A DNA stretch of 64,000 nt from Mycobacterium sp. (GCA_021732005.1 JAKFVT010000043.1:606-64605), one strand, 5' to 3'; shown: positions 28,995-62,080, counted from the stretch's first letter. The notes: a model not told the origin generated them from the sequence alone. Program-made: numbers and translations.

Positions 28995-30079
28995 CCACAC
29001 CGCTGACCCTGCCGATGATCGGCCGAGCACCCAAGGCCCTGCTGCACGACCACCTCGACGGGGGTCTGCGCCCGGCGACCGTCCTCGATATCGCCGGCCA
29101 GGTCGGGTACGACGGGTTGCCGGCCACCGACGATGCCGGACTGGCCGAGTTCTTCCGCACCGCCGCGCACAGCGGGTCGCTGGTGCGCTACCTCGAACCC
29201 TTCGCGCACACCGTTGCCGTCATGCAGACCCCCGAGTCCTTACATCGGGTGGCGTTCGAATGCGTGGAGGACCTGGCGGCCGACAACGTGGTGTACGCCG
29301 AGGTGCGGTTCGCCCCGGAACTGCACATCGACCGCGGGTTGTCGCTCGACGCGGTGGTCGACGCGGTGCTGGCCGGCTTCGCTGACGGGGAGAAGGCCGC
29401 CGCAGCCGACGGGCGCCCGATCGTGGTGCGCTGCCTCGTGACCGCGATGCGCCACGCCGCGCGATCACGGGAGATCGCGGCGCTGGCGATCCGGTTCCGC
29501 GACAAGGGGGTGGTCGGGTTCGACATCGCCGGTGCGGAGGCCGGCTATCCACCCACTCGCCACCTCGACGCGTTCGAGTACATGCGAAGTAACAACGCGC
29601 GCTTCACGATTCACGCCGGTGAGGCGTTCGGCCTGCCGTCCATCCACGAGGCGCTGGCCTACTGTGGGGCCGACCGGCTGGGTCACGGTGTACGCATCGT
29701 CGACGACATCGAGGTGGGGCCGGACGGCACGGCGCGCCTCGGCTCGCTGGCGGCGATCCTGCGCGACAAGCGAATCCCGCTCGAGCTGTGCCCGAGTTCC
29801 AACGTCCAGACCGGCGCGGTGCCGAGCATCGCCAGCCATCCCTTCGACCTGCTCGCACGGCTGCGGTTCCGCGTCACCGTCAACACCGACAACCGCCTGA
29901 TGAGCGACACCACCATGAGCCAGGAGATGGCCCGGCTGGTCGATGCGTTCGGCTACGGGTGGAGCGATCTGGAGCGGTTCACCATCAATGCGATGAAATC
30001 GGCGTTCATCCACTTCGATGAGCGGCTGGCCATCATCGACGAGGTGATCAAACCGCGCTATGCGGTCTTGATCGGCTGA
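28991..30079 (+). CDS. add: Adenosine deaminase
   Basis: [26 protein letters not shown]. Confidence 0.96.
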
Positions 30080-30393
30080 GGTTTGTCCGAGCCGACCAAC
30101 GCCTGGCTGAGCACTCGCAGCGCATCACTGTCGCGTGCGGGGGAGTAGTAGACGAACGTGCCTTCGCGCCGGCTTTTCACCAGGCCCGCCAGCCGCAGTT
30201 TGGCCAGGTGCTGGCTGACCACGGTGGGCGCCGCCCCGGCCAGCTCGGCCAGGCAGGCCACCGACGACTCGCCCTGCAGCAAGGCCCAGAGCACCTTGAT
30301 CCGAGTCGGGTCACTCAGCATCCGGAAGGTGTCCGCGGCCTGATTCACCTCGTCCTCGGTCGGCATCGAGAACCCCGGAATCGATGTGTGCAC
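30058..30393 (-). CDS. ArsR/SmtB family repressor (KmtR-like N-terminal part)
   Basis: [30 protein letters not shown]; TAGACT -10 six nt before the GTG. Confidence 0.88.
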
Positions 30394-30432
30394 GACGCGA
30401 GTCTAGCTTCCGTTGGCCCTGGTAGCGCAGAC

Positions 30433-30472
30433 ATCTGCATACTTGTTTGCGAATATGCACGAATATGCAGAT
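30433..30472. promoter_or_regulatory. Candidate ArsR operator: 9-bp inverted repeat with internal direct repeats
   Basis: ATCTGCATA (30433-41) and TATGCAGAT (30464-72); GAATATGCA at 30451 and 30461; touches the TATGCT -10 (30472-77) of the ATPase gene. Confidence 0.7.
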
Positions 30473-30484
30473 ATGCTTGGCGCC

Positions 30485-32392
30485 GTGATCGTCGACTCCG
30501 CCACTCGGATCCCAGTGGGCAGTTCGTCTCGTCTGAAGCGGCTCCAGCGGTCGAGCGCGTGGAGTGTGCCCGAGGTGTGGTGGGCGACGCTGGCCACCGG
30601 GCTCTTCGTGCTGGGCTCGCTCACAGATTTCGCGGGCGGACCGTCCTGGCTGTCCTGGCTGCTGTATCTGGTGTGCTATGCCGCCGGGGGCTGGGAGCCC
30701 GCTCTGGCGGGCCTGAAAGCGTTGCGGCACAAGACGTTGGACGTCGACCTGCTGATGATCGCCGCGGCGCTCGGCGCTGCGGCGATCGGCCAGGTCTTCG
30801 ACGGCGCCCTGCTGATCGTCATCTTCGCCACCTCCGGCGCACTCGAGGCGGTTGCCACGAAGCGCACCGAGGACTCGGTACGCGGACTGCTCGACGTCGC
30901 ACCCGAGACCGCCACGCGCCTGACCGAGTCCGGTGCCGAGGAGGTCGTCGACGCCGCACTCCTCGATGTCGGCGACCTCCTGATGATCCGTCCCGGCGAG
31001 CGGATCGGCGGGGACGGCATCGTGGTGGACGGCGCCGGCGAGGTCGACCAGGCGCACATCACCGGAGAACCCCTGCCCGCCGACAAGACCCGCGGTGATG
31101 AGGTGTTCGCCGGCACCGTCAACGGCACGGGGTCCCTTCGCGTGCGGGTGATTCGGCCCGCGGCCGACACCGTCATCGCGCGGATGGTGGCGATGGTGGC
31201 CGAGGCCAGCGCCAGCAAGGCGCGCACCCAGCTCTTCATCGACAAGGTCGAGCAGCGCTACTCGGTGGGCATGGTGGCCGCCACCGTCGCTCTGCTGGTG
31301 ATCCCACTGCTGTTCGGCGCGGATCCGCAGTCGGCCCTGCTGCGGGCCATGACGTTCATGATCGTGGCATCCCCGTGCGCCCTGGTCCTGTCGACGATGC
31401 CGCCGCTACTGGCCGTCATCGCCAACGCCGGACGCCACGGCGTACTGGTGAAGTCAGCGGTGGTGCTGGAGAAGCTCGCGACCGTCACCCACGTCGCGTT
31501 CGACAAGACCGGCACCCTCACCCACGGCACGCCGCGGCTCACCCGGGTCCGCTCCTTCGACGCCGAACGCAGCGAGGCGGATCTGCTCAGCCTGGCGGCA
31601 GCGGCCGAGCACCCATCCGAACATCCGCTCGGGCGGGCCATCGTCGCCGCCGCGCAGCAGGCCGGGCTTCCCGTCCGGCAAGCCATCGAGTTCGTCGCCA
31701 CTCCCGGCAGGGGCGTGCGCGCCCGGGTCGGCGGCGACGTCGTCGACGTCGGCGCTGCCCCTGCGACCTTGCACGACACCGGCGACACGGCCGTCGTCGT
31801 ACGGGTCAACGGCATATCGGCGGGAGTGCTGACGCTCGCCGACCATCCCCGCGCCGAGGCCGCCGACGCCGTCGCCCGCCTGCGCGCACTCACCGGCACC
31901 GAGCCAGCGTTGCTGACCGGTGACAACCAGCGCGCGGCCGCTCAGCTGGCCGTCGACACCGGGATCGTCGACGTCCGGGCGGGATTGCTCCCCGCCGACA
32001 AGGTGGCCGCGGTGCGCGACCTCCAGGACGACGGCGGCCGGGTCATGCTCGTGGGCGACGGCATCAACGACGCCCCGGCAATGGCCGCCGCCCACGTCGC
32101 CGTCGCAATGGGACGCTCAGGCTCCGACCTGGCGCTGGAGACCGCCGATGCCGTGATCACCCGCGATGACCTGGGCACGTTGCCGACCATGCTGACCCTG
32201 GCGCGCCGGGCCCGCCGTGTTGTCGCGGCGAACCTGGTGATCGCCGCGACGTTCATCGTCGTGCTGGTCGCCTGGGATCTCTTCGGACACCTGCCGCTGC
32301 CGTTGGGGGTCGCCGGGCATGAAGGCTCGACGATCCTCGTCGGCCTCAACGGTCTGCGCCTGTTGCGTGACCGCGCCTGGACGGCGAGATAG
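30485..32392 (+). CDS. Heavy-metal P1B-4 ATPase (CtpD/CtpJ-like)
   Basis: TGE, SPC in the metal-binding TM, DKTGTLT, HP, GDGINDAP, HEGST. Likely leaderless GTG 30485 after TATGCT. Confidence 0.92.
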   Translation: MIVDSATRIPVGSSSRLKRLQRSSAWSVPEVWWATLATGLFVLGSLTDFAGGPSWLSWLLYLVCYAAGGWEPALAGLKALRHKTLDVDLLMIAAALGAAAIGQVFDGALLIVIFATSGALEAVATKRTEDSVRGLLDVAPETATRLTESGAEEVVDAALLDVGDLLMIRPGERIGGDGIVVDGAGEVDQAHITGEPLPADKTRGDEVFAGTVNGTGSLRVRVIRPAADTVIARMVAMVAEASASKARTQLFIDKVEQRYSVGMVAATVALLVIPLLFGADPQSALLRAMTFMIVASPCALVLSTMPPLLAVIANAGRHGVLVKSAVVLEKLATVTHVAFDKTGTLTHGTPRLTRVRSFDAERSEADLLSLAAAAEHPSEHPLGRAIVAAAQQAGLPVRQAIEFVATPGRGVRARVGGDVVDVGAAPATLHDTGDTAVVVRVNGISAGVLTLADHPRAEAADAVARLRALTGTEPALLTGDNQRAAAQLAVDTGIVDVRAGLLPADKVAAVRDLQDDGGRVMLVGDGINDAPAMAAAHVAVAMGRSGSDLALETADAVITRDDLGTLPTMLTLARRARRVVAANLVIAATFIVVLVAWDLFGHLPLPLGVAGHEGSTILVGLNGLRLLRDRAWTAR

Positions 32393-32552: not shown

Positions 32553-35500
32553 GTGATGTCCAAGCGCGCCGTTTTGAGGGGCGTGTCACCACATAAGCTC
32601 CTCACGGGCTTGGGTCGGGTGATCGTTCGCCACCCTCTGCTCGTGATCGCTGCTTGGCTCGTTCTGGCCGGCGCTCTGCTGGCCCTCATCACGCCACTGG
32701 CTGTTGTAGCGGCGCGCAACCCGCCGGACTTCCTGCCCAAAGACGCGCCCGTGCTCATCTCGGTCAAGAAGATGCAGGGCGCTTTTCACGAAGCCGATGC
32801 GGGCAATTTCGCCGCGATCATCCTCAGCAATGAGAACGGCCTGACCCCGGCCGACGAGGATGCGTACCGACGGATCGTCGACAACCTCAAGGACGACACC
32901 AAGAACGTGTCGTCGCTCCAGGACTTCGTGCGCACACCCGAACTGAAAGAGGTGATGACCAGCAAGGACGGGAAGGCCTGGAACCTGCCGGTCAGCATGA
33001 CGGGCACCATGGGCGCCCCGGACGGCCAAGAGTCATATCGCCACGTCATCAACACCGTCCAGGACGCGGCGAAGGGCTCGTCGCTGCAGGTCAATGTGGT
33101 GGGTGGGGCCTCGACCATCGAGGATATGAACGTCATCGGCGCCCGCGACCAGCACATGATCGAAGTCGCCACGGTGGGCTTGGTGTTCTCGATCCTGCTG
33201 CTGGTTTATCGCAGCCTGATCGCGATGCTGATGCCATTGATCACCATTGGCATTTCCCTGGTGGTCGCCCAGCAGGTCGTGGCCGGCCTCGGCGAGCTGG
33301 GTCTTGGCCTGGGCCCGCAGACGATGATGTTGATGGTCGGCATGATTATGGGCGCCGGCATCGACTACGGCGTTTTTCTCTACAGCCGCTATCAGGAACT
33401 CACCAAGACCGGGATGGGGTCCGACGACGCCCTCGTCGAAGCCCTAGCCACGATCGGCGAGGTGATCGCCGGCTCGGCGGGCACCGTCGCGCTGACGTTC
33501 CTCGGGATGTCCTTCACGAAACTGGCCATCTTCTCCACCGTCGGGCCCGCCCTGACAGTGACGATCGTGGTGGGCTTCCTGGCCTCGATCACGCTGTTGC
33601 CGGCATTCATCGTGCTTGCCGGCCGGCGGGGATGGATCAAACAGCGGCGCGACATCACCGGGCGATTCTGGCGCCGCTCCGGTGTGATGGTCGTCCGTCG
33701 GCCGGTCGCCTTGCTGGCGACCAGCGTGGTAATCCTGGGGGCGCTGGCCGCCACCACGTCGCTGATGAAGTTCAACTACGACGACCGCAAGAACCTGCCG
33801 CAGGACTCCGCGAGCAACCGCGCCTACGAGGTGATGGACAAACACTTCCCCATCAGCAGCACGCTGCAGCAGTTCCTCTTCATCCAGTCCCCGAACGATC
33901 TGCGAACCCCGAAGGCGCTGGCCGACATGGAGCAGATGGCCGCGCGCATCGCGCAGCTGCCCGACATCGACCTGGTGCGCGGAATCACCCGCCCGACCGG
34001 GGAAGTGCTCGAGCAGGCCAAGACCACCTATCAGGCCGGTGAAGTCGGCACCAAGCTCGGTGATGCGTCCAACCTGATCCACACCAACGACGACAACCTC
34101 ACCTTGCTCTCCGGCGGTGCCGGCAAGATGGCCGACGTTCTCGGCCAGATCCGCACCCAGGTGGTGGGATCGATCGCCAGCGTGCGCGGGTTGACCAGTG
34201 CGCTGGACACCATGTCGCAGAAGTACGGCGGAGCAAAGACTCTGGACCAGATCGACAAGACCGCGTCGTTGGTGACCAGCATGCGCTCGCTGGGCGACTC
34301 ATTGGGGCTGACCATTCTGCGAGTCACGGGCATCGGCGATTGGGCTGCGCCGATGCTCAACGCGCTCAACGTCTCTCCGGTGTGCGACGCGGATCCCGCC
34401 TGCGTCAACTCACGGTCGGACCTGCAGAAGATCGTCGACGTCGCCAACACCCCGGCCGTCAAGTCCATCGAGGAATTCGCTCGGGAACTCTCCAAGACCG
34501 ACGGATCGCAAAAGCTCGACGAGGCCGTCCACGACCTGAGCCAAAACGTCAAGAAAGTGACGTCGGCCGCGCGCTCACTCGGCGTCGGCCAACCCGGCGG
34601 GGTCGAGAAGAAACTCAACGATGCGGTCACCGGCGTGAACACGCTCGCCGATTCGAGTCGCCAACTGGCCGTGGGTGTTCAGACCTTGGTCGACCAGACC
34701 CGCAACCTGGGGCAGGGGCTGGATCAGGCGTCGTCGTTCCTGTTGGCGATGAAGCGGGAGGCGGCCGATCCGCCGATGTCGGGGTTCTACATCCCGCCGC
34801 AGGTGTTGACGATGGACGAGTTCAAGAAGGCCGCCAAACTGTTCGTCTCCGAGGACGGCCACTCGGCGCGCTATCTGGTCCAGACGGCGCTCAACCCGTT
34901 CAGCACCGAGGCGATGGATCAGACCAAGCTGATCGTCAACACCGCGAACGCGGCCACGCCCAACACGCAGCTCGCCGGTTCCGAGATCTCGATGGTCGGG
35001 TTCTCGTCGATCAACGCCAACATCCGGGACTTCTACGACTCCGACTTCGTCTACATCCTCTGCATGACCCTGATCGTGGTCTTCCTCATTCTCGTGGTGC
35101 TGCTGCGGGCGATCGTCGCGCCCCTGTATCTGGTGCTCTCGGTGGTGCTGTCCTACGGTGCGGCGCTGGGCATCGGGGTCGTGCTGTTCCAATTCATCCT
35201 CGGTCAGGAATTGGCATGGGGCGTACCGGGAATCGCGTTCATGGTGCTTGTCGCGGTCGGCGCCGACTACAACCTGCTGTTGATCTCCCGCATCCGCGAC
35301 GAGGCCAAATACGGTGTGCGCTCGGCAGTTATCCGCACTGTCGGTGCTACCGGGGGTGTGATCACCTCGGCGGGTCTGATCTTCGCGGCATCGATGATGG
35401 CCCTCACCGTCAGCAGCGTGCTCACCGCCGCGCAGATCGGCTTCGTGATCGGCGTCGGGCTGCTGCTGGACACCTTCCTGGTGCGCACGCTCACGGTGCC

Positions 35501-35711
35501 GGCCGCCGCCGTGCTGGTCGGTGACGCCAACTGGTGGCCGGCCAAACCTCCGCGCGTCAAGCTCGAAGCCGCCAGGCGGGCCGCCGCGAGCGCGGCGGCA
35601 ACCGCCCCCGTCGCGTTGCTCGAACATGACGAGACGGACGTGCAGGATTTCGATGACACCGAAGGTGAATCCGCCTGGGAGGCGGAAGGCGGGGCGACGC
35701 GGGACGACTAG
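32553..35711 (+). CDS. mmpL: MmpL family RND transporter of the long MmpL8/10/12 type
   Basis: GIDYGVF and GADYNLL D-Y pairs; QDFV..P.L...MTSKD motif; long helical insertion in the second periplasmic domain; 1052 aa. Confidence 0.92.
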   Translation: MMSKRAVLRGVSPHKLLTGLGRVIVRHPLLVIAAWLVLAGALLALITPLAVVAARNPPDFLPKDAPVLISVKKMQGAFHEADAGNFAAIILSNENGLTPADEDAYRRIVDNLKDDTKNVSSLQDFVRTPELKEVMTSKDGKAWNLPVSMTGTMGAPDGQESYRHVINTVQDAAKGSSLQVNVVGGASTIEDMNVIGARDQHMIEVATVGLVFSILLLVYRSLIAMLMPLITIGISLVVAQQVVAGLGELGLGLGPQTMMLMVGMIMGAGIDYGVFLYSRYQELTKTGMGSDDALVEALATIGEVIAGSAGTVALTFLGMSFTKLAIFSTVGPALTVTIVVGFLASITLLPAFIVLAGRRGWIKQRRDITGRFWRRSGVMVVRRPVALLATSVVILGALAATTSLMKFNYDDRKNLPQDSASNRAYEVMDKHFPISSTLQQFLFIQSPNDLRTPKALADMEQMAARIAQLPDIDLVRGITRPTGEVLEQAKTTYQAGEVGTKLGDASNLIHTNDDNLTLLSGGAGKMADVLGQIRTQVVGSIASVRGLTSALDTMSQKYGGAKTLDQIDKTASLVTSMRSLGDSLGLTILRVTGIGDWAAPMLNALNVSPVCDADPACVNSRSDLQKIVDVANTPAVKSIEEFARELSKTDGSQKLDEAVHDLSQNVKKVTSAARSLGVGQPGGVEKKLNDAVTGVNTLADSSRQLAVGVQTLVDQTRNLGQGLDQASSFLLAMKREAADPPMSGFYIPPQVLTMDEFKKAAKLFVSEDGHSARYLVQTALNPFSTEAMDQTKLIVNTANAATPNTQLAGSEISMVGFSSINANIRDFYDSDFVYILCMTLIVVFLILVVLLRAIVAPLYLVLSVVLSYGAALGIGVVLFQFILGQELAWGVPGIAFMVLVAVGADYNLLLISRIRDEAKYGVRSAVIRTVGATGGVITSAGLIFAASMMALTVSSVLTAAQIGFVIGVGLLLDTFLVRTLTVPAAAVLVGDANWWPAKPPRVKLEAARRAAASAAATAPVALLEHDETDVQDFDDTEGESAWEAEGGATRDD

Positions 35712-36709
35712 AACCGTGGGGTGGGCACCCAGGGCATGAAACGCGCCGACCAGCTCACCAGGTTGTCCGCGACCGCATCTTCGAGCCGGTATCGGGTGTT
35801 CACCGGGTCGTCGGTCCACAGCGACGAAATCACTTGAGCCAGACCGTCGATGCGCAGCAGGTTGAACTCCGAGTCGTCCTCGAGTTTCATCTCGCGCAGC
35901 GCCGCCTGGTACGGAAGGTCGATGTGTAGCGGCTTTTCCAGCCCGTCGATCGTGAACCCTGCGATGCCGTTCTCATCCTGGACGCGACGGAGGCTGGCGC
36001 CCTTGGCATCTGGGATCGGATGGCCCATCGGGTCGCCGGTCAGCGTCGTCGTGCTGCCGGTCACGGAGAAGGATCCCTCGGACTGCCGGTACGGCTCGTG
36101 TACCTCGCCCACCTTTCCGCCGCGGAATCGGTACTCGATGTCCACGCCGCCGGGCACGCGCCGACTTCGGGCCGATTTGGGCGGCAGCAAATCCAACCAC
36201 GACCGCACCAGTGCCAACGCGTGATAGCGATAGCCCATCTGGGACATCGCGACTCGGCTCACCTCGCCGAGCGTGCCTGACCGGATCGCCTCGCCCACCA
36301 GTCGGTACTGCGGCATGTTCATGAAGTCTTCACCGACCCGGATGGGCGACCACCGGCGGAACTGGGCCAGCCGGGCGAGGTCGTCGAGCCGCCCGACGCC
36401 GGGGGTGTCGATGACCAACGCTGCGCCGGGAGCCAGGTGGGCCAGTGACTTCAACACGGCGACGTTGTTGGTCACCGTCACCGACACCAGGGCCAGGTCT
36501 ATGTCGCCGGGGCGCAATGTCCGGGGATCCTCGATCGCCGGCACACCCCAGCGGTCGGCCGCGCGGGACGCGTTCGCAAAGGTGCGGGAGTGGACTCCGA
36601 CGACCTCGATGTGGGAGTCGAGCAGGCTCAACGCCGGAAGGAAAGCGTTGCGAACGCGGTATCCGGAACCGACGACCAGCGCCCGCAGCCGGCTACTGGG
36701 CTGTGTCAC
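35708..36709 (-). CDS. Gfo/Idh/MocA-like NAD(P)-dependent oxidoreductase (divergent)
   Basis: ALVVGSGYR Rossmann start, VVGVHSR, DLALVSV; DTP in place of the usual EKP; GTG overlaps the upstream TGA. Confidence 0.65.
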   Translation of the reverse strand: MTQPSSRLRALVVGSGYRVRNAFLPALSLLDSHIEVVGVHSRTFANASRAADRWGVPAIEDPRTLRPGDIDLALVSVTVTNNVAVLKSLAHLAPGAALVIDTPGVGRLDDLARLAQFRRWSPIRVGEDFMNMPQYRLVGEAIRSGTLGEVSRVAMSQMGYRYHALALVRSWLDLLPPKSARSRRVPGGVDIEYRFRGGKVGEVHEPYRQSEGSFSVTGSTTTLTGDPMGHPIPDAKGASLRRVQDENGIAGFTIDGLEKPLHIDLPYQAALREMKLEDDSEFNLLRIDGLAQVISSLWTDDPVNTRYRLEDAVADNLVSWSARFMPWVPTPRF

Positions 36710-37551
36710 ACAACGCCCGCGGCGGCCAGCGCACGGAAACCGACGGTCTGGGCGCGGATGTAGGCCGCCTGGGCCCGGGACAGCTCGTTGCGCGTCGTCG
36801 GCGGCAGCGGGGTGCCGGCCGGGATCTCGCCGCGGTCGGTCAGCGGGGTGGTGCTGCCCACCCGGTTCTCGTCGATCAGGGCCAGCAGTGCCGGATCGCT
36901 CAGGTGCGCCCGGGCGTCGGTGAACTCGGGCAGCCCGATCCGGTCGTTCGGCAGGCCGGCGGGCTGGAACGAGATCTTCAGCACCCGGCGGCGCACCGAG
37001 CCGCGGTTCGGCGAGGCGCGATGGAAGTACGACCGGTTCCACATCGCGGCCGTGCCGATCGGGCCGACCAGTTGGACCGCGTCACCGCCGGCGCGCATCC
37101 CGTTGTTGGGCCGGTGCGGGTAGAACTCGAACGCGCCGTCGTCCGCGCCGACCGGTGACAGCAGGATGAAAATGCTGATGAAGGACGGGAAGTCGGGGGT
37201 GTAGGACCGAATCGTCTCGGTGTCGCGGTGCCAGCCCAGCGGTTTGTCGCGGTGGATGTGCGGCCGGCCCTGGTTGGCGGCGATCTCGTAACTGTGGCAG
37301 TGGTACAGCAGAGCCGACGGGTGGATGCCGGCGATGAGCTGACGCACCGGCTCGCTGAACAGCTCGGCGAAGATCCCGGTTTCGGCCAGGGCGTCGGCGC
37401 TCGCGTACGACCGTCGCTCACCGTCGGTTCCGGCGAAGATCGGATCGAGGCGACGATTCCAGTCTTCGACCAGCTCGACAGGCCACAGTCCGGTGACATC
37501 GGCGATGCCCTCGTTTGCCAGCAGGTCCGTCACTGTCAGTGTCGACGTCAC
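36706..37551 (-). CDS. PhyH-like Fe(II)/2-oxoglutarate dioxygenase
   Basis: WHRD (HxD), SIFILLSPVGADDGAFEF, distal HRASPN..R; GGAGG RBS before GTG 37551. Confidence 0.75.
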   Translation of the reverse strand: MTSTLTVTDLLANEGIADVTGLWPVELVEDWNRRLDPIFAGTDGERRSYASADALAETGIFAELFSEPVRQLIAGIHPSALLYHCHSYEIAANQGRPHIHRDKPLGWHRDTETIRSYTPDFPSFISIFILLSPVGADDGAFEFYPHRPNNGMRAGGDAVQLVGPIGTAAMWNRSYFHRASPNRGSVRRRVLKISFQPAGLPNDRIGLPEFTDARAHLSDPALLALIDENRVGSTTPLTDRGEIPAGTPLPPTTRNELSRAQAAYIRAQTVGFRALAAAGVV

Positions 37552-37624
37552 CGGTGCTACCTCCCTCAGCGAATTGCGCGCCCCCACGCTACAGGCTATC
37601 GGTGCTGGCTGCGAGAGCCATAGG

Positions 37625-38227
37625 TCACTGCTTGGCGAACACGAACAGCCGGTGCTGGTAGCCGTCGACGTTTGCCCAGTTCTCCTCGTGGAGGCTGGCG
37701 TAGCCGCGATCCCGGAACAGTGTGCGGATGTCTTCTTCCAGGTAGCTGTTCAGCCAGCCCCGGCTGATCCGGTCGACGGAGCCGAGCTTGGTGCGCCGGA
37801 ACTGGTCGTTGCTGTCCGGGCAGCCGTAGGAGATCACGGCCCGCGGTACGTACGTCGACAGCCAGTCGAGCACCGACGGCACATCCTTCAGGTACTCCAG
37901 CACGCCCATGATCACGGCCACGTCGTAGGTGTCCGTGCCCAGGTTCGGCAGCGGCCGCTCGTTGAGATCGCAGACGATCGTTCCCGGGCCGCGGTCGACG
38001 AGGTCGGACGGTGTGTAGGTGCAGGACGGGTCGAGGTGCTTCTCGATAGCCCGGGTGCCGGCGCCGAACTCGATCACCCGACTGCCTGCCGGGATCAGTT
38101 CGGCGGCCCGCTTTGTGCGGGGCTCCCAGTCCGAGTAGAGGTTCCGGGTGTCGGCCCACCGCTTGTAGTCGGTCTTCTGCCGCAGTGCGGCGATGATCCC
38201 CAGCTTCGGGATGTGGACGCGGCTCAC
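37625..38227 (-). CDS. Class I SAM-dependent methyltransferase
   Basis: VIEFGAGT motif I, CDLN, YDVAVIMGVLEY. GTG 38227 chosen as start. Confidence 0.82.
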   Translation of the reverse strand: MSRVHIPKLGIIAALRQKTDYKRWADTRNLYSDWEPRTKRAAELIPAGSRVIEFGAGTRAIEKHLDPSCTYTPSDLVDRGPGTIVCDLNERPLPNLGTDTYDVAVIMGVLEYLKDVPSVLDWLSTYVPRAVISYGCPDSNDQFRRTKLGSVDRISRGWLNSYLEEDIRTLFRDRGYASLHEENWANVDGYQHRLFVFAKQ

Positions 38228-38486
38228 TGGATGTTCACCCCAACTGTTCGGTGCCGTGACAGGTTTTCCGAAGGTTAGCACCCCACCAAACGGTGGCTGG
38301 ACGTGGTTTGCGGGACAACCAACGCCGAAGTAAATTTTCGCCCGGTCAAATTCCGCAGGTGCGCACGCTGACGCCCATGCCGGTGTCCCGTGCGGCAGGA
38401 GGCTGGTGCCCAACGCGGCGTTTGCTGATAGAGTCTTGCAGGCCTGGTCGGGGGGCGTGGGCGAAAAAATAAGGGGAGTGACCCGT

Positions 38487-39974
38487 ATGCGACTAGCGGC
38501 TCGCAGCGCGGCGGTGGCGGCGGCCACCCTGGCAGCATTCTTGTCCTTGGTTCTCCTGTCGACATCGACAGCGGCCCTCAAGCTCCTCGCAAGTGGCGCA
38601 ACGGTTCTCGTGATGGGCGGAACCGGGCACTCGTTGTCGCCGGACGAGGACACCAATCAGTTCGTCCAGGACTACATGGCCAGCGCGCTCGGCAACTACG
38701 TCGCGCCCGCGTCGACGCTGGGCACCGGCGTCCCCGGCGGCCCGTACAACGCGGTCGCCGTCATCACCCCGGAACAGTCCGCGCCGAACAACGGCACGTT
38801 GACGTTCGATCAGTCGGTGGCGCTGGGCAGGCAGAATCTCGACAACTGCATCAAGGCGACGTCATCGTGCAGCTACAACGACCAGGTGGGATCCGTCGCT
38901 CCGACTCCCGGCGACACGTTCGTCGTCTACGGCTTCTCGCAGAGCTCGACGATCTCGACCCTCGAAAAGCGGGCGCTGGCAGCCGAATACGCACCCGGTG
39001 AGGGCCCCGACGTCAGCTTCGTGCTGACCGCCAACGGCAACCGCCCGAACGGTGGATTCCTCGCCCGCGGGCCCGAGGGCGTCACGATCCCGGTGGGCCT
39101 GCCGTTCGGCGGGTCGACGTTCAACGGACCCACCCCGACCGACACCCAATACGACACGACCGACATCGCCGCGCAGTACGACGGCTGGTCGGATTTCCCG
39201 GTCAACCCGCTGAACCTGCTGGCCGTGGCCAACGCGATGATGGGCGTCGACTACCTGCATCTCGGCGGCAGCTACGACAACACCACGCTCACCGATCCGG
39301 GCGTGGTCGATCAGGGCCAGTACGGCGACACCCACTACTACCTGATCTCCACCCCGGTGCTTCCGCTGCTGATGCCGCTGGAGAAGCTCGGGCCGCTGGG
39401 CCATGCGTTCGCCGACACCTTGGACGCGCCGCTGCGGGTGATCATCGAGTCTTCGTACGACCGCACCACCAGCCCAGGTGTGCCGACGTCGTGGAACGTC
39501 ACGTACTTCCCGAACCCGGTGAAATTCGCCCGCAACCTGATCGTCTCGATCCCCACGGGCTGGGACAACGGCATCCAGGACCTCACCGGCAAGCGCCCGT
39601 TCGGCACGACCCGGCCCGGACCCTACGGAGTCGGCGGTCCTGACGTCACCTACACCACCCCGGATACCACCTCGGATTCGTCGAGCGCGGCGGCAACCAC
39701 TGAGACCACCGCGGTGGCCGCCACGGAGCCGACTGTGAAAAAGGCGACGGCCGGCGTCAGGCCGCGCATGACGGCGACTACTACGACGGCCACCACCACG
39801 CCGACGACGAAGACCGCAGCCGCCGCCGCGACCGGCGGCAAGGACACGTCGTCCAAGGACACGTCGTCCAAGTCGACTAAGTCCTCGACGTCCTCGACGT
39901 CCTCGACGTCCACGCACAACAACGGTGTCGGCGGCTCCAAGCGAGCCAAGGCGAGCGCCGGCTCCAGCAGCTAG
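38487..39974 (+). CDS. Secreted PE-PPE-domain (cutinase-like serine hydrolase/acyltransferase) protein with S/T/K-rich tail
   Basis: Signal peptide, VMGGTG, GFSQS nucleophile, GNRPNGG, QYDGWSDFP..PLNLLAVANA; GGGGAG RBS. Confidence 0.88.
   Translation: MRLAARSAAVAAATLAAFLSLVLLSTSTAALKLLASGATVLVMGGTGHSLSPDEDTNQFVQDYMASALGNYVAPASTLGTGVPGGPYNAVAVITPEQSAPNNGTLTFDQSVALGRQNLDNCIKATSSCSYNDQVGSVAPTPGDTFVVYGFSQSSTISTLEKRALAAEYAPGEGPDVSFVLTANGNRPNGGFLARGPEGVTIPVGLPFGGSTFNGPTPTDTQYDTTDIAAQYDGWSDFPVNPLNLLAVANAMMGVDYLHLGGSYDNTTLTDPGVVDQGQYGDTHYYLISTPVLPLLMPLEKLGPLGHAFADTLDAPLRVIIESSYDRTTSPGVPTSWNVTYFPNPVKFARNLIVSIPTGWDNGIQDLTGKRPFGTTRPGPYGVGGPDVTYTTPDTTSDSSSAAATTETTAVAATEPTVKKATAGVRPRMTATTTTATTTPTTKTAAAAATGGKDTSSKDTSSKSTKSSTSSTSSTSTHNNGVGGSKRAKASAGSSS
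39840..39908 (+). repeat. Short in-frame tandem repeats in the PE-PPE tail
   Basis: AAGGACACGTCGTCC x2 (39840-39869) and TCCTCGACG x3 (39882-39908). Confidence 0.85.
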
Positions 39975-57403: not shown

Positions 57404-60400
57404 TCAGCGCAAACGGAGCCCGCGGGGAGTGCGGGAGAAACCGGCGTCGACCAGCGCGTCGACTGTTGCCTTCCGGTCGGCATGCGCACCGGCCTCCAAA
57501 ACCGGTATACCGTCCAGCTTTTCGACCAGCACGCCGCCGATACGTCCACTCCTGACCAGTTCGGCCAGGGTTCCCGCCGCGGCGCGCTGCGCTTCGTCGT
57601 CGGTGCTGAAGTTCAGCAGCGATCGTCCACCGCGCTCTAGGAACCACACCAGCGCACCGTCAACCAGGATGACGAGCGCACCGGCCTTGCGTCCGGGCCG
57701 ATGGCTGGCGTCGGCGTCCGGGCGGGCGGGCCAGGGCAACGCCGCGCCGTACGGGTTGGCCGGATCGGCAGCCGCCAGCACGACCGCGCGATAGTCGGGC
57801 CGCTCAGGGTCCACTCCGTCGAGATAGGTCCGCAGCCGGTCGACCGTCGACGCGACGGCGAACTGCGCTCCGCCCAGCGACTCGACGAAGTAACCGCGCT
57901 GGCATCGCCCGGCCTCCTCGAAACCGGTCAGCACCTTGTACATCGTGGCGAACCCGCCTGGAACCCCCTCGGCAGCTGCCGCCCCCTTGGTCAGCACACC
58001 ATGGCGGTTCAGCAACAACTCTGCTGAGAAATGGGCCCGCACAGTCGAATCCGGCTCGCGAGCCGGCACCGCCGACCACCGCCCGGCGACCGTCGAATCC
58101 ACCGAGCGGGCTTGGGCGTGCGCCACCGAATAGCGGCTCAACCGCGGCGCGCGGCGCTGCCGGTGCGCCGGCGCGGCGGGACGACGGGTACCGGGCTTGC
58201 GTCCACCCGCCAGCATGGCGCGCACCGGCGCGAACGTGTCGCCGGTGACCCAGCCGGCCCAGATCAGGTCCCACAGCGCGGCTTTGGCGGTCTCCTCCGA
58301 ACCGCCGACCAGCTGCCGGAAGAAGAATGCGCCGCGTGCCTCACCGGGCTCGCCAAGGACCTCGAGGATCGCGCGGTGCGCATCGGTGAAGTCGATCTCG
58401 GCTGGAGTCGCGAGCGTCAGCGGTGCGGTGTCCGCGTGGTGGAACGTGATCCAGCCGTCGCTGCCCGAGATCGATCCCGCCCCTGACCAGGTGACCTCAC
58501 CGGAGGCCAGCAGCTCGTCGAGCATCGCCGGCTGGTAGTCACGCACCCGCGGGCCGAACACCAGCGGCTCGACCGCCGATGCGGGGATCGGCACCCCGGC
58601 CAGCTGGTCGATCACGCTTGCCAAACCGTCGACTCCAGACGTCGCAGAGCTGCCGACCTGCTGCCACGCGGGTAGAAAGCGGGCGTACGCCGCCGTGCTG
58701 ACCGGCTCGACCTGGGCGCGCAGCGCCGCCAGCGAGCGGCGACGCAGGATGCGCAGCACCTCGGCGTCACACCACTGGTCTGCGTCTGGGGCGGCGACGA
58801 ACTCGCCGCGAATCAGCTTGCCGTCCACCGACATCCGGCCCAGCACGTCAGCAGCGACCCGCAAGCCGAGGCCGAACCGGGTCGCGGCCTCGGCGGTGGT
58901 GAACGGGCCGCGGGTGCGGGCGAAGCGACCCATCAACTCACCGAGGGGGTCGGGCACCGCCTCGGTGAAACTCGTCGGCACTCCGACGGGCACGGCGACG
59001 CCGACCGCATCGCGCAGCCGTCCGATGTCCTCGATGCCCGCCCACCAGGACTGCCCGGCGTACGACAGCGGCAGCGCGCGTCTGGCGGCATGCAGTCCGT
59101 CCAGCCACGCACCGACGTCGGTGGCGGTGCAGCGCTCGGCGATCTCGGCCTCGGTCAGCGGGCCGAGCAGGCGCAGCAGGTCCGCCACGCCTTCGGCGTC
59201 GCGAGCCTTGCGGTCCTCGGAAAGATGTTGCAGCTGCCGCGATGTCGCGGCAATGACGTCAGGGTCGAGCAGCTCCCGGAGCTCGACACGGCCGAGCAGT
59301 TCCGCCAGCAGGGTGCTGTCCAGCGACAGTGCGGCCGCGCGGCGCTCGGCCAGCGGGCTGTCGCCCTCGTACATGAACGCGCCGACATAGCCGAACATCA
59401 GCGACGCCGCGAACGGTGACGGCATCGGTGTCTCGACCTCCACCAACCGCACCCGACGCTGGGCGATCCGGCTCATCAGGTCGGTCAGCGTCGGAACGTC
59501 GTAGACGTCCTGCAGGCATTCGCGCACCGCCTCCAGCACGATCGGGAAGTCGGGGTATTTGCGCGCCACATCCAGCAATTGGGCCGCCCGCTGCCGCTGG
59601 TGCCACAGCGGCGAACGCTTACCGGGATGGCGTCGGGGTAGCAACAGCGCCCGCGCCGCGCATTCCCGGAACCGCGACGCGAACAGCGCCGAACCGCCCA
59701 CCTCGGTGGTGACCAGCGGCTCGATCTCATCGGGGGCGAAGACGAACAGGTCGGCGCCGGGCGGGGCATCCTCGGTGTCGGGCAACCGCACCACGATGCC
59801 GTCGTCGGAGGCGGTGGGCTTCTCGTCGATGCCGTACCGCTCCAGCAGCCGGCGGCTGACCGCGAGAGCAAGCGGACCGTGCACCTTCAGTCCGTAGGGG
59901 GAGTGCAGCACCACCCGCCAGTCGCCGAGCTCATCGCGGAAACGCTCGACCAGCAGAGTGGTGTCGCTGGGTACCGTGGCGGTGGCGTTGCGCTGATCGT
60001 CGAGTAGCTGCCACAGGTTGTCGGTGGCATAGTCGGCAAAACCCAGTTCATTGCAGCGTGTTTCGAAATCGCCGCGGCCCATCGCGGCCAGCTCGCCGGT
60101 GAATTTGCCGATCGCCTGGCCGAGCTCGGCGGGCCGGCCCGCGTCGTCGCCGCGCCAGAACGGCAACCGCGCGGGTTGTCCCGGCGCGGGGATGACGAGC
60201 ACCCGGTCGTGGGTGATCTCGGTGATCCGCCAGCTGGTCGCTCCCAGTGAGATGACGTCGCCGGGCCGCGACTCGTATACCATCTCTTCATCGAGTTCGC
60301 CTACCCGCGAGGGCTTTTCGGAATCGGTGGCCAGGTAAACGGTGAACATGCCACGGTCGGGGATGGCGCCGCCGGAGGTGACCGCCAGCCGCTGGGCACC

Positions 60401-61933
60401 GGGACGCGCGGTCAGGGTGCCGTTGTCGCGGTCGTAGATCAATCGCGGCCGCAGCTCGGCGAAATCCGTCGATGGATACTTCCCTGACAGCAGATCCAGA
60501 GTTGCCTCGAATGCGCTGCGCGGCAACGTCGCAAACGGTGCGCTGCGCCGGACGACGTCGAACCACTCGTCGGCGCTGACCGGCTCCAGGGCGCACGCGG
60601 CCACGGTGTGCTGGGCCAGCACGTCGAGCGGATTGGTGGGCACCCGCATGGTTTCGATCTGTCCGGCGAGCATGCGTTGCACGCTGACGGCGCAGCCGAT
60701 CAGGTCGGTCCGGTGTTTGGGGAACAGCACCCCGCGGGAGATCTCGCCGACCTGGTGACCGGCCCGTCCGACGCGCTGCAATCCGCTGGCCACCGACGGC
60801 GGCGCTCCCACCTGAATCACCAAATCCACTGCGCCCATGTCGATTCCGAGCTCCAGGCTCGATGTCGCCACCACGGACTTGAGCCGCCCGCTTTTGAGGT
60901 CGTCCTCGACCGCGGCGCGCTGCTCCTTGGACACCGAGCCGTGGTGGGCGCGGGCCAGCAGCGGCTCGGCTCCGTAGGTCTGCCCGCTGCCCATGATGTG
61001 CGCCGGTGGTCCGCCGGGCACCTGGCGGTTGGGTGGCGCGTCCAGTTCGACGCCGGAGCGTTCGGCATGAATTTCGTTGATGCGCGCGGTGAGCCGCTCG
61101 GCGAGGCGGCGCGAGTTGGCGAACACGATGGTCGAGTTGTGTGCCTCGATGAGGTCGACGATGCGCGCCTCGACATCGGGCCAGATGGTGTTGTTCTCCA
61201 AGTTGGCCATGTCGGGCACCGGCACCTGGACGGTCAGCCCGAACGTCTTCGTTGCCGGCGGCGCGACGATGGTCGTCGGCCTGGCGCCGGAGAGGAACCG
61301 GGCCACTTCCTCGGGTGGGCTGACCGTCGCGGACAGCCCGATGCGCTGGGCCGGTTTCTCCAGCAGCGCATCGAGGCGCTCCAGGGATACCGCCAGATGC
61401 GCGCCGCGCTTGGTGGCGGCCACCGCGTGCACCTCGTCGACGATCACCGTCTCGATGCCGGTCAGGGTCCCCCGAGCCGCGGAGGTCAACATCAGGAACA
61501 GCGACTCCGGGGTGGTGATCAGGATGTCGGGAGGCTTGGTGATGAGCTCGCGCCTGCGGGCGGGCGGGGTGTCGCCGGAGCGGACGCCGACGCTGATCTG
61601 CGGGGCAGGCACACCATCGCGTTCGGCGATGCGGGTGATGCCGGTCAGCGGGGTGCGCAGGTTGCGTTCCACGTCGACGGCCAGTGCCTTGAGCGGGGAG
61701 ACGTAGAGCACCCGGGTGCCACGTTTCTCCGGCTCATGGGCCAGCTGGTCGATCGCCCACAGAAAGGCCGCCAGCGTCTTACCCGACCCCGTCGGGGCGA
61801 TGACCAGGGTGTTGTCCCCGTCGGCGATCGCTGACCAGGCCCGCGCCTGCGCAGCGGTCGGCTCGGCGAACGTGCCTGTGAACCAGCGCCGCGTCAGCGG
61901 GCTGAACCGGCTCATCGGATCGGGGGAACGCAC
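57404..61933 (-). CDS. lhr: ATP-dependent helicase Lhr (full-length)
   Basis: APTGSGKT, VGVRSGDT, DEVH, GLSAT, HHGS, ATSSLELGIDMG, QRVGRAGH. GTG 61933 (alternative ATG 61915). Confidence 0.95.
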   Translation of the reverse strand: MRSPDPMSRFSPLTRRWFTGTFAEPTAAQARAWSAIADGDNTLVIAPTGSGKTLAAFLWAIDQLAHEPEKRGTRVLYVSPLKALAVDVERNLRTPLTGITRIAERDGVPAPQISVGVRSGDTPPARRRELITKPPDILITTPESLFLMLTSAARGTLTGIETVIVDEVHAVAATKRGAHLAVSLERLDALLEKPAQRIGLSATVSPPEEVARFLSGARPTTIVAPPATKTFGLTVQVPVPDMANLENNTIWPDVEARIVDLIEAHNSTIVFANSRRLAERLTARINEIHAERSGVELDAPPNRQVPGGPPAHIMGSGQTYGAEPLLARAHHGSVSKEQRAAVEDDLKSGRLKSVVATSSLELGIDMGAVDLVIQVGAPPSVASGLQRVGRAGHQVGEISRGVLFPKHRTDLIGCAVSVQRMLAGQIETMRVPTNPLDVLAQHTVAACALEPVSADEWFDVVRRSAPFATLPRSAFEATLDLLSGKYPSTDFAELRPRLIYDRDNGTLTARPGAQRLAVTSGGAIPDRGMFTVYLATDSEKPSRVGELDEEMVYESRPGDVISLGATSWRITEITHDRVLVIPAPGQPARLPFWRGDDAGRPAELGQAIGKFTGELAAMGRGDFETRCNELGFADYATDNLWQLLDDQRNATATVPSDTTLLVERFRDELGDWRVVLHSPYGLKVHGPLALAVSRRLLERYGIDEKPTASDDGIVVRLPDTEDAPPGADLFVFAPDEIEPLVTTEVGGSALFASRFRECAARALLLPRRHPGKRSPLWHQRQRAAQLLDVARKYPDFPIVLEAVRECLQDVYDVPTLTDLMSRIAQRRVRLVEVETPMPSPFAASLMFGYVGAFMYEGDSPLAERRAAALSLDSTLLAELLGRVELRELLDPDVIAATSRQLQHLSEDRKARDAEGVADLLRLLGPLTEAEIAERCTATDVGAWLDGLHAARRALPLSYAGQSWWAGIEDIGRLRDAVGVAVPVGVPTSFTEAVPDPLGELMGRFARTRGPFTTAEAATRFGLGLRVAADVLGRMSVDGKLIRGEFVAAPDADQWCDAEVLRILRRRSLAALRAQVEPVSTAAYARFLPAWQQVGSSATSGVDGLASVIDQLAGVPIPASAVEPLVFGPRVRDYQPAMLDELLASGEVTWSGAGSISGSDGWITFHHADTAPLTLATPAEIDFTDAHRAILEVLGEPGEARGAFFFRQLVGGSEETAKAALWDLIWAGWVTGDTFAPVRAMLAGGRKPGTRRPAAPAHRQRRAPRLSRYSVAHAQARSVDSTVAGRWSAVPAREPDSTVRAHFSAELLLNRHGVLTKGAAAAEGVPGGFATMYKVLTGFEEAGRCQRGYFVESLGGAQFAVASTVDRLRTYLDGVDPERPDYRAVVLAAADPANPYGAALPWPARPDADASHRPGRKAGALVILVDGALVWFLERGGRSLLNFSTDDEAQRAAAGTLAELVRSGRIGGVLVEKLDGIPVLEAGAHADRKATVDALVDAGFSRTPRGLRLR

Positions 61934-61939
61934 GACTCC

Positions 61940-61961
61940 AGGGTGCCAGGGGGTACCGACA
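61940..61961 (-). promoter_or_regulatory. PafBC/RecA-NDp-type promoter of lhr
   Basis: TGTCGG-N10-CACCCT, 6 nt before GTG 61933; -10 is one mismatch from TAnnnT. Confidence 0.65.
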
Positions 61962-62080
61962 GATCGAAGGCGTAGACGCCGCCCACAATTGTCGGATATG
62001 TAGATCACCGAACGTTTGCGCGCCATAATGTTGGCCTGAGGGGCAGCCATCGGGGGATGCTGCGACGTTCGGGGGGTGAA

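Follow-up and report, generated by a model that had tools for sequence, protein, structure and literature searches.

The five genes described here form a putative envelope-glycolipid locus in a 64-kb stretch of high-GC mycobacterial DNA, hereafter the window, on which all coordinates are counted. They lie between the adenosine deaminase gene add and satS, and encode an MmpL transporter, a methyltransferase, a PhyH-like dioxygenase, a Gfo/Idh/MocA-like oxidoreductase (Gfo) and a PE-PPE hydrolase. Pfam matches and coordinates agree with an earlier interpretation of the DNA letters alone (the sequence-only reading), which had described an MmpL gene converging on a methyltransferase/PhyH/Gfo run that is divergent from a PE-PPE gene. 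The features are:

32556-35711, plus strand: MmpL transporter, 1051 aa (PF03176 MMPL, 4.3e-164)
35708-36709, minus strand: Gfo-like oxidoreductase, 333 aa (PF01408 GFO_IDH_MocA, 2.5e-5, 25.4 bits, cut-off 24)
36706-37551, minus strand: PhyH-like dioxygenase, 281 aa (PF05721 PhyH, 1.5e-5, 25.8 bits, cut-off 22)
37625-38227, minus strand: Methyltransf_23 enzyme, 200 aa, GTG start (PF13489, 5.6e-13)
38228-38486, no strand: divergent intergenic (promoter) region, a 259-bp spacer between the methyltransferase operon and the PE-PPE gene
38487-39974, plus strand: PE-PPE hydrolase, 495 aa (PF08237, 1.4e-65, 221 bits)

Along the plus strand, the MmpL gene is followed by the Gfo, PhyH and methyltransferase genes, all on the minus strand, and then by the PE-PPE gene, the minus-strand run itself reading methyltransferase-PhyH-Gfo. 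The stops of the convergent MmpL and Gfo genes share 4 nt. The Gfo start and the PhyH stop also share 4 nt, an overlap which indicates a methyltransferase-PhyH-Gfo operon. The PE-PPE start at 38487, where a Shine-Dalgarno sequence (AAGGGGAG) stands ahead of the ATG, agrees with database gene call P0061. A sequence scan of the divergent region found neither a sigma-70 consensus promoter nor a terminator, and an Rfam scan of the window returned zero families. RNA contigs from two independent runs end at 38245, about 18 nt upstream of the methyltransferase GTG, and continue into Illumina adapter; this common stop therefore probably marks the 5' end of the minus-strand operon transcript.

All five genes are intact at the same site in at least 17 species. 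The closest public relative of the window is Mycolicibacterium psychrotolerans P7 (94.7% nucleotide identity over 19 kb), and the exact window sequence is present in drinking-water metagenome runs. Ratios of nonsynonymous to synonymous substitution rates (dN/dS; pairwise, three relatives) range from 0.07 to 0.29 for the five genes, the same range as for add, satS and the phosphoglucomutase gene (PGM). RNA-seq contigs of a cultured, ~96%-identical relative span the region from MmpL through satS and cover all five genes, with the highest word depth in the locus found over PhyH. Purifying selection and this RNA coverage together argue that the genes are real rather than chance open reading frames (ORFs).

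The transporter, a member of the RND superfamily, shows a class-I, MmpL4/5-like architecture. It matches MmpL4/5 in the Protein Data Bank (PDB) with an E value of 1e-124 and MmpL3 with merely 1e-22, the MmpL structures available there being those of MmpL3, MmpL4 and MmpL5. Asp-Tyr pairs are kept in transmembrane segments 4 and 10, and the periplasmic hairpin measures ~262 aa (aa 478-739), close to the ~260 aa described for MmpL8, MmpL10 and MmpL12, which constitute subclass 1b (PMC12507525). The window protein lacks the long C-terminal extension of M. marinum MmpL12. It is 63% identical over 1000 aa to M. smegmatis MSMEG_4741 (locus L037, 750-3803), 53% identical to the MmpL in a lipooligosaccharide (LOS)-like locus of M. 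talmoniae and 65% identical to the MmpL of Mycobacterium sp. 48b. The last of these lies in a locus with a polyketide synthase (PKS), PapA, FadD, SfLAP and a GT28 glycosyltransferase, and location of its homologues in PKS-PapA-FadD loci is a further likeness to the MmpL12 subclass. A large protein search was uninformative for naming the transporter among MmpL8, MmpL10 and MmpL12, as database names are generic only. With TIGR00833 it scores 872.9 bits, marginally below the cut-off of 874.7, and automatic annotation would therefore skip the subfamily name. These comparisons support an assignment to the acyl-trehalose-glycolipid type, as the sequence-only reading had suggested, and the hairpin length would fit the MmpL8/10/12 subclass by its published description.

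The methyltransferase, the first gene of the operon, is an S-adenosylmethionine (SAM)-dependent enzyme that is 57% identical to MSMEG_4738 (L037, 5966-6538), 61% to the M. talmoniae copy and 64% to the copy of locus L033. A sequence search of the PDB found no relative of it, and it is presumed to be a sugar O-methyltransferase.

In the PE-PPE hydrolase, an N-terminal membrane anchor or signal (aa 8-26) precedes the catalytic domain (~aa 37-395), and the remainder (aa 396-495) is a disordered tail rich in Ser and Thr. The GFSQS motif, reported as intact by the sequence-only reading, corresponds to G149-F-S151-Q-S153 and is a nucleophile motif of the G-x-S-x-[GS] type; all 33 homologues compared keep S151, D232/D236 and H258, which provide the Ser/Asp/His triad. 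The AlphaFold2 model, whose catalytic core has predicted local distance difference test (pLDDT) values mostly above 90, is similar to two mycobacterial cutinase-like lipases, Rv3802c and MSMEG_6394; sequence comparison with solved structures was uninformative. The catalytic domain is 57% identical to MSMEG_4734 (L037, 10001-11827), and the protein is presumed to act as a periplasmic acyltransferase. Known PE-PPE/MmpL pairs serve sulfolipid-1 (SL-1), polyacyltrehalose (PAT) and trehalose polyphleates (TPP; PMC12507525). Like Chp1 (SL-1), Chp2 (PAT) and PE (TPP), the partners of MmpL8 and MmpL10, the window protein combines the PE-PPE domain and Ser-Asp-His triad with one membrane segment near its N-terminus, and its gene adjoins that of an MmpL; it differs in its long Ser/Thr-rich tail. 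The TPP PE protein is no orthologue of it, since the NCBIfam equivalog 'acyltransferase PE' (NF041570) scores 48.1 bits against a cut-off of 580. An identity as orthologue of M. tuberculosis Rv3312c, which occupies the same tail-to-tail position beside satS/Rv3311, was likewise considered; a literature search on Rv3312c gave no results. This core-synteny interpretation was dropped, not disproved; the closest characterised relative is MSMEG_4734, and the gene is absent at the site in Mycobacterium sp. strain M26.

Two side observations concern this protein. Its tail (39672-39974) is rich in Ser, Thr, Ala and Lys, has pLDDT values below 50 and varies between species in length and sequence, and ends in a motif (...H-x-GVG-x-SKRAKASA) which is conserved in the orthologues at the site and in a paralogue of M. 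aichiense; it might serve in sorting or anchoring. That paralogue, 59% identical to the window protein, lies at a second M. aichiense locus (L041), a large glycolipid-tailoring region with three GT28/EryCIII-like glycosyltransferases, a GT4 enzyme, several methyltransferases, a GMC oxidoreductase, Acyl_transf_3, a canonical Gfo/Idh/MocA protein and a DrrABC-type ABC exporter. Members of this PE-PPE subfamily appear to accompany glycolipid loci in general, whether the exporter is an MmpL or an ABC transporter.

The M. smegmatis cluster MSMEG_4727-4741, which runs from pks5 to mmpL, makes pyruvylated, acylated trehalose lipooligosaccharides. Locus L037 corresponds to this island, since single-guide RNA (sgRNA) and knockout primers map MSMEG_4730, 4731, 4732, 4734, 4735 and 4737 onto its genes (PMC11139207 supplement), and the mapping identifies the PE-PPE, Methyltransf_23 and MmpL genes as MSMEG_4734, MSMEG_4738 and MSMEG_4741, respectively. 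Its gene order is MmpL, GT28, Methyltransf_24, Methyltransf_23, two pyruvyl transferases, a 294-aa protein, PE-PPE, SfLAP, GT2, FadD, two 455-aa proteins, PapA and a 2111-aa PKS, which agrees with the reported '15-gene LOS cluster' (bioRxiv 10.64898/2026.05.17.725743). MSMEG_4741 is cited in the literature as the mmpL of the LOS locus, and deletion of MSMEG_4734 removes a phenotype that depends on the LOS island. The window shares with this cluster the transporter, the methyltransferase and the hydrolase (63/57/57% identity to MSMEG_4741/4738/4734) as well as their domain make-up, the PE-PPE protein having an N-terminal anchor and a low-complexity tail in both. It differs in lacking the PKS, PapA, both 455-aa proteins, FadD, GT2, SfLAP, GT28, both pyruvyl transferases and Methyltransf_24, in possessing the PhyH and Gfo genes, which are absent from M. 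smegmatis, and in its chromosomal site (add-satS). A tblastn search of the 64 kb with the LOS-locus proteins of M. smegmatis and M. talmoniae matched only the MmpL, methyltransferase and PE-PPE genes, so that the claim of a locus devoid of pks, papA and fadD extends to the entire window. Of the families that define a LOS cluster, the window thus holds the transporter, PE-PPE and Methyltransf_23, but not pks5/PapA/FadD or the GT2 and GT28 (EryCIII-like) glycosyltransferases. As a side observation, two or three paralogous proteins of ~440-465 aa (MSMEG_4729/4730 and relatives), for which no Pfam match was found, lie between PapA and FadD in LOS-type loci of three species (L037 15199-18010; L032 14271-18393; L040 1871-4627 and 6411-7739) and represent a conserved, uncharacterised family.

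Homology of three of the five genes to a described 15-gene cluster bears directly on the claim that the locus is an undescribed cassette and the strongest candidate for a new system. That claim is not supported in this form, because such homology points to a split or reduced LOS-type locus rather than to a new kind of system; the broader assignment to envelope-glycolipid metabolism, and the partner role proposed for the PE-PPE protein, here a counterpart of MSMEG_4734, gain support from the same comparison. The predicted co-occurrence of the five genes elsewhere stands in part. In M. talmoniae, MmpL, PE-PPE, Methyltransf_23, PhyH and Gfo lie, independently and in a different arrangement, at most 12 kb from GT28, GT2, pyruvyl transferase, FadD, PapA and PKS genes, and a locus in a Mycobacterium metagenome-assembled genome (MAG) unites four of the five families. 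The set is nevertheless not indivisible, as is evident from M. aichiense, from strain M26 and from PhyH-Gfo pairs that occur away from any MmpL gene.

A reduced cluster could also be an evolutionary remnant, in which a former LOS cluster has lost its PKS/PapA/FadD/glycosyltransferase core and the leftovers no longer belong to a working pathway. The core genes are indeed absent from the 64 kb, and LOS production is patchy across mycobacteria and silenced in M. smegmatis. This explanation is nonetheless highly improbable, given that at least 17 species retain every one of the five ORFs intact, that their dN/dS values of 0.07-0.29 match those of add, satS and PGM, that the catalytic residues of PhyH, PE-PPE and MmpL are conserved and that RNA coverage in the relative is high.

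The remaining two genes, PhyH and Gfo, have no counterpart in the M. smegmatis cluster. The PhyH protein, for which only 60 homologues were found among 5.8 billion proteins, displays a facial triad (H108-x-D110...H177) and R187-R189 that are invariant in 21 homologues. Its AlphaFold2 model (pLDDT 92.3) has FtmOx1, TlxI and AsqJ as top PDB matches in Foldseek (probability 1.0, TM ~0.55); sequence comparison with solved structures gave weak, generic matches only. Iron triad, 2OG-binding arginine and predicted double-stranded beta-helix fold are all as expected of a PhyH-family Fe(II)/2-oxoglutarate (2OG) dioxygenase, which would be cytoplasmic. The Gfo protein, encoded by the last gene of the operon, has an N-terminal Rossmann domain whose loop is of the GxGxx[GA] type, with G14-S-G16 invariant, and a profile of 15 homologues matches 1zh8 (6.8e-16), the sugar 3-ketoreductase KijD10 (2e-8) and 1,5-anhydro-D-fructose reductase (3e-7) in the PDB. 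It is predicted to be a divergent, cytoplasmic NAD(P) oxidoreductase of the Gfo/Idh/MocA type.

The two genes are tightly associated. A genome scan for PhyH with one genome per species found 31 loci, in all of which a Gfo-like gene directly follows the PhyH gene. The pair ranges over Actinomycetota, Bacteroidota, Acidobacteriota and Alphaproteobacteria ("four phyla"), its carriers including Frankia, Microthrixaceae, Cyclobacteriaceae, Terracidiphilus and a Hyphomicrobiales MAG. Beyond the focal clade, the majority of the annotated loci (several short contigs and locus L031 were annotated no further than the pair itself) are carbohydrate or glycolipid loci. A pyruvyl transferase gene is found at most 10 kb away in 8 of 18 non-redundant loci. 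Individual contexts are as follows:

M. heidelbergense: glycopeptidolipid (GPL)-type locus with four Gtf, MbtH, a nonribosomal peptide synthetase (NRPS), Acyl_transf_3, FkbM methyltransferase, pyruvyl transferase, UDP-glucose dehydrogenase and epimerase
Mycobacterium MAG: pyruvyl transferase-methyltransferase-PhyH-Gfo-GT2-DrrABC-PE-PPE
Frankia: exopolysaccharide (EPS) locus with a pyruvyl-transferase/glycosyltransferase fusion and a priming sugar transferase
Cyclobacteriaceae: GT1, two GT2, a pyruvyl-transferase-like gene and a sulfotransferase
other loci: carbamoyltransferase, GMC oxidoreductase, GT4, alpha-galactosidase and PGI/PMI-like genes

The pair also occurs without an MmpL gene, in loci of the GPL, LOS-like and exopolysaccharide kinds. 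The regions that tailor GPL in a serovar-specific manner in the M. avium complex and its relatives resemble the window in two respects, namely in the company of PhyH and Gfo with Gtf, FkbM, pyruvyl- and acyltransferase and NRPS/MbtH genes (in M. heidelbergense and Mycobacteriaceae bacterium 1482268.1) and in a cassette-like variability among close relatives, as at add-satS. They differ in that the window has neither NRPS nor Gtf, and its transporter and PE-PPE protein are of the LOS type rather than the GPL type (MmpS4/MmpL4). In the literature collection searched, no paper ties PhyH dioxygenases to GPL or LOS. In kanamycin biosynthesis, the PhyH-family Fe/2OG dioxygenase KanJ and the NADPH-dependent reductase KanK convert a sugar C-NH2 to C-OH by way of a ketone. 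The window pair follows a similar logic, the gene of a PhyH-type dioxygenase being linked to that of a nicotinamide-dependent reductase in a setting of carbohydrate metabolism; the likeness goes no further than analogy, as no specific relationship between the two pairs is detectable.

This context also bears on the nature of the lipid. The MmpL and PE-PPE proteins might serve another acyl-trehalose lipid (TPP-, diacyltrehalose (DAT)/PAT- or sulfolipid-like), with the three enzymes modifying its lipid moiety, for example by hydroxylation and methylation of an acyl chain. PhyH is named after the fatty-acyl-CoA (phytanoyl-CoA) hydroxylase, SL-1, PAT and TPP are each served by a known PE-PPE/MmpL pair (PMC12507525), and the window contains zero glycosyltransferases. 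The best-characterised relatives of the MmpL, the methyltransferase and the PE-PPE protein, however, all belong to the LOS cluster, and the PE-PPE protein reaches just 48 of the 580 bits required by the TPP 'acyltransferase PE' model. Annotated neighbours of the pair outside mycobacteria are polysaccharide and sugar genes (glycosyltransferases, pyruvyl-, sulfo- and carbamoyltransferases), with zero lipid genes among them, and the Gfo profile matches sugar ketoreductases. This alternative is therefore improbable.

The site occupied by the five genes is itself variable. On the left it is bounded by the core genes add, the ArsR regulator and the P-type ATPase, and on the right by satS, the gene of the SecA2 chaperone (712 bits with the NCBIfam equivalog, cut-off 700), beyond which lie DUF218, upp (assigned through synteny with locus L035) and PGM. 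In M. aichiense (L036), the MmpL is 96% identical at the amino acid level and the flanks are ~90-94% identical in DNA, whereas the DNA corresponding to window 35571-39974 is replaced: methyltransferase and PE-PPE genes show 69% and 80% nucleotide identity, PhyH and Gfo are missing, and the interior includes Methyltransf_24 and a gene for a 297-aa protein. In strain M26 (L042) the order is add-MmpL-satS, with nothing between MmpL and satS. At least three states thus exist: the five-gene set, an alternative set (other Methyltransf_23 and PE-PPE alleles, Methyltransf_24 and the 297-aa unknown), and MmpL alone. The conserved flanks indicate that the interior was exchanged by recombination; the MmpL gene is the constant occupant of the site, and the tailoring genes act like a cassette that can be swapped. 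A sequence scan around the cassette found neither flanking repeats nor mobile-element ends. The GC dip is mild, with 0.62-0.66 over MmpL against ~0.69-0.72 in the flanks. In M. crocinum an insertion sequence (IS) with a DDE_Tnp_1 transposase (L038, 17555-19102) lies between PE-PPE and satS, which is further evidence that this junction is a hot spot.

Such variability raises the question of whether the five genes belong together at all. They may instead be two or three independent neighbouring units, a resident MmpL with its own cargo next to a landing pad, extending to satS, for unrelated glycan-modifying genes. PhyH and Gfo, with or without the methyltransferase, would then modify another glycoconjugate (a capsular polysaccharide or exopolysaccharide, or a GPL-like lipid) or a free sugar rather than the MmpL cargo. 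In line with this explanation, M26 has add-MmpL-satS without the interior genes, M. aichiense has retained the MmpL and the flanks (~93% identical) around a replaced interior devoid of PhyH and Gfo, the pair is found in many loci without MmpL, including non-mycobacterial EPS loci, and the MmpL gene is convergent with the operon and not co-transcribed with it. Against it, both cassette types share Methyltransf_23 and PE-PPE, and M. aichiense has in addition a Methyltransf_24, as does M. smegmatis; the variable content is thus LOS-type and not random, which argues that the tailoring genes serve the MmpL cargo. Moreover, the complete clusters of M. talmoniae and M. smegmatis hold the same families with a homologous MmpL, and the five genes have been kept together in at least 17 species. 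Independent units therefore appear rather unlikely, though a more serious competitor than either a remnant or another acyl-trehalose lipid.

Taken together, the locus is probably a reduced, split LOS-type glycolipid cluster at the variable add-satS site of the Mycolicibacterium psychrotolerans/rhodesiae/sphagni clade. In the cytoplasm, the Methyltransf_23 enzyme would O-methylate a sugar residue in a glycolipid precursor that is acylated and probably built on trehalose. The PhyH-type dioxygenase would oxidise a sugar carbon to a keto intermediate, which Gfo would reduce again, the net result being an epimerised or otherwise edited sugar by a formally KanJ/KanK-like route. The MmpL12/MSMEG_4741-like transporter would then move the lipid across the plasma membrane, and the anchored PE-PPE hydrolase would complete it outside the membrane by transesterification, comparable to Chp1/MmpL8, Chp2/MmpL10 and PE/MmpL10. 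The lipid core (Mas-type PKS, PapA and FadD) and the glycosyltransferases would be encoded elsewhere, and the idea of a satellite module is consistent with the lack of core genes in the 64 kb. An order of cytoplasmic tailoring, export and periplasmic transacylation had been proposed before, and fits the membrane-segment pattern, the three tailoring enzymes having zero hydrophobic or transmembrane segments and the PE-PPE protein a single, N-terminal one.

Several observations weigh against a split LOS-type cluster of this kind. The search for PKS, PapA, FadD, glycosyltransferase and pyruvyl transferase genes, which covered the 64-kb window only, found none there. The PE-PPE protein is just 35% identical to that of M. 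talmoniae. M26 with MmpL alone and M. aichiense with a different set imply that the linkage between the MmpL and the tailoring genes could be positional. The structural matches of PhyH reflect the generic PhyH fold and give no clue to its substrate, and KanJ is not among its top 50 Foldseek matches or its PDB profile matches. In Gfo, the EKP motif of the Gfo/Idh/MocA family is replaced by D101-T102-P103, which is invariant in the subfamily and lacks the catalytic Lys; this indicates a divergent branch whose mechanism may differ. The RNA evidence consists of assembled contigs from a relative rather than from the window organism and attests to presence only, with DNA carry-over possible. Finally, there is no demonstrated reaction for members of the PhyH, Gfo, Methyltransf_23 or PE-PPE subfamilies found here.

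Further genes of the window lie outside the locus. The ArsR regulator (minus strand) and the P-type ATPase (plus strand) between add and MmpL (30058-32392) are restricted to the window, M. psychrotolerans, M. rhodesiae DSM 44223 and M. crocinum and are missing in most relatives; an RNA contig of a related strain links 30081 straight to 32438 and skips both genes, a pattern that suggests a metal-efflux pair recently inserted or deleted. A 1658-aa Lhr-type helicase (57404-62380, minus strand) and a truncated beta-helix (NosD-like) protein at the left edge (1-2244) have no relation to the five genes.

LOS-type glycolipids shape colony form, biofilm formation, host interaction and phage susceptibility in mycobacteria, and LOS over-production blocks phage infection in M. 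smegmatis. To our knowledge, most genes of LOS clusters have no assigned reaction, including PE-PPE and Methyltransf_23. By sequence comparison, the transporter, the methyltransferase and the PE-PPE protein are the part already known, with named counterparts in the described LOS cluster, and the unexplored part is the obligate PhyH-Gfo pair together with the cassette polymorphism of the add-satS site. It is tempting to speculate, as a possibility to be held tentatively, that the pair is an unrecognised, horizontally mobile 'sugar editing' module of at least four phyla, in which Fe/2OG oxidation of a glycan carbon and stereo-controlled reduction yield rare epimers or deaminated sugars on finished glycolipids or exopolysaccharides, and that add-satS is a hypervariable, serotype-like locus where tailoring cassettes are swapped beside a fixed LOS-type MmpL, diversifying the surface glycolipid, for example under phage pressure. 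The locus represents a minimal, naturally 'dissected' set of export and finishing genes, and the natural allelic series at one site (five genes, the alternative set or MmpL alone) could tie gene content to glycolipid structure without engineering; both are useful to specialists rather than surprising. The one aspect with real discovery potential is the cross-phylum PhyH-Gfo pair, whose chemistry on sugars could be new.

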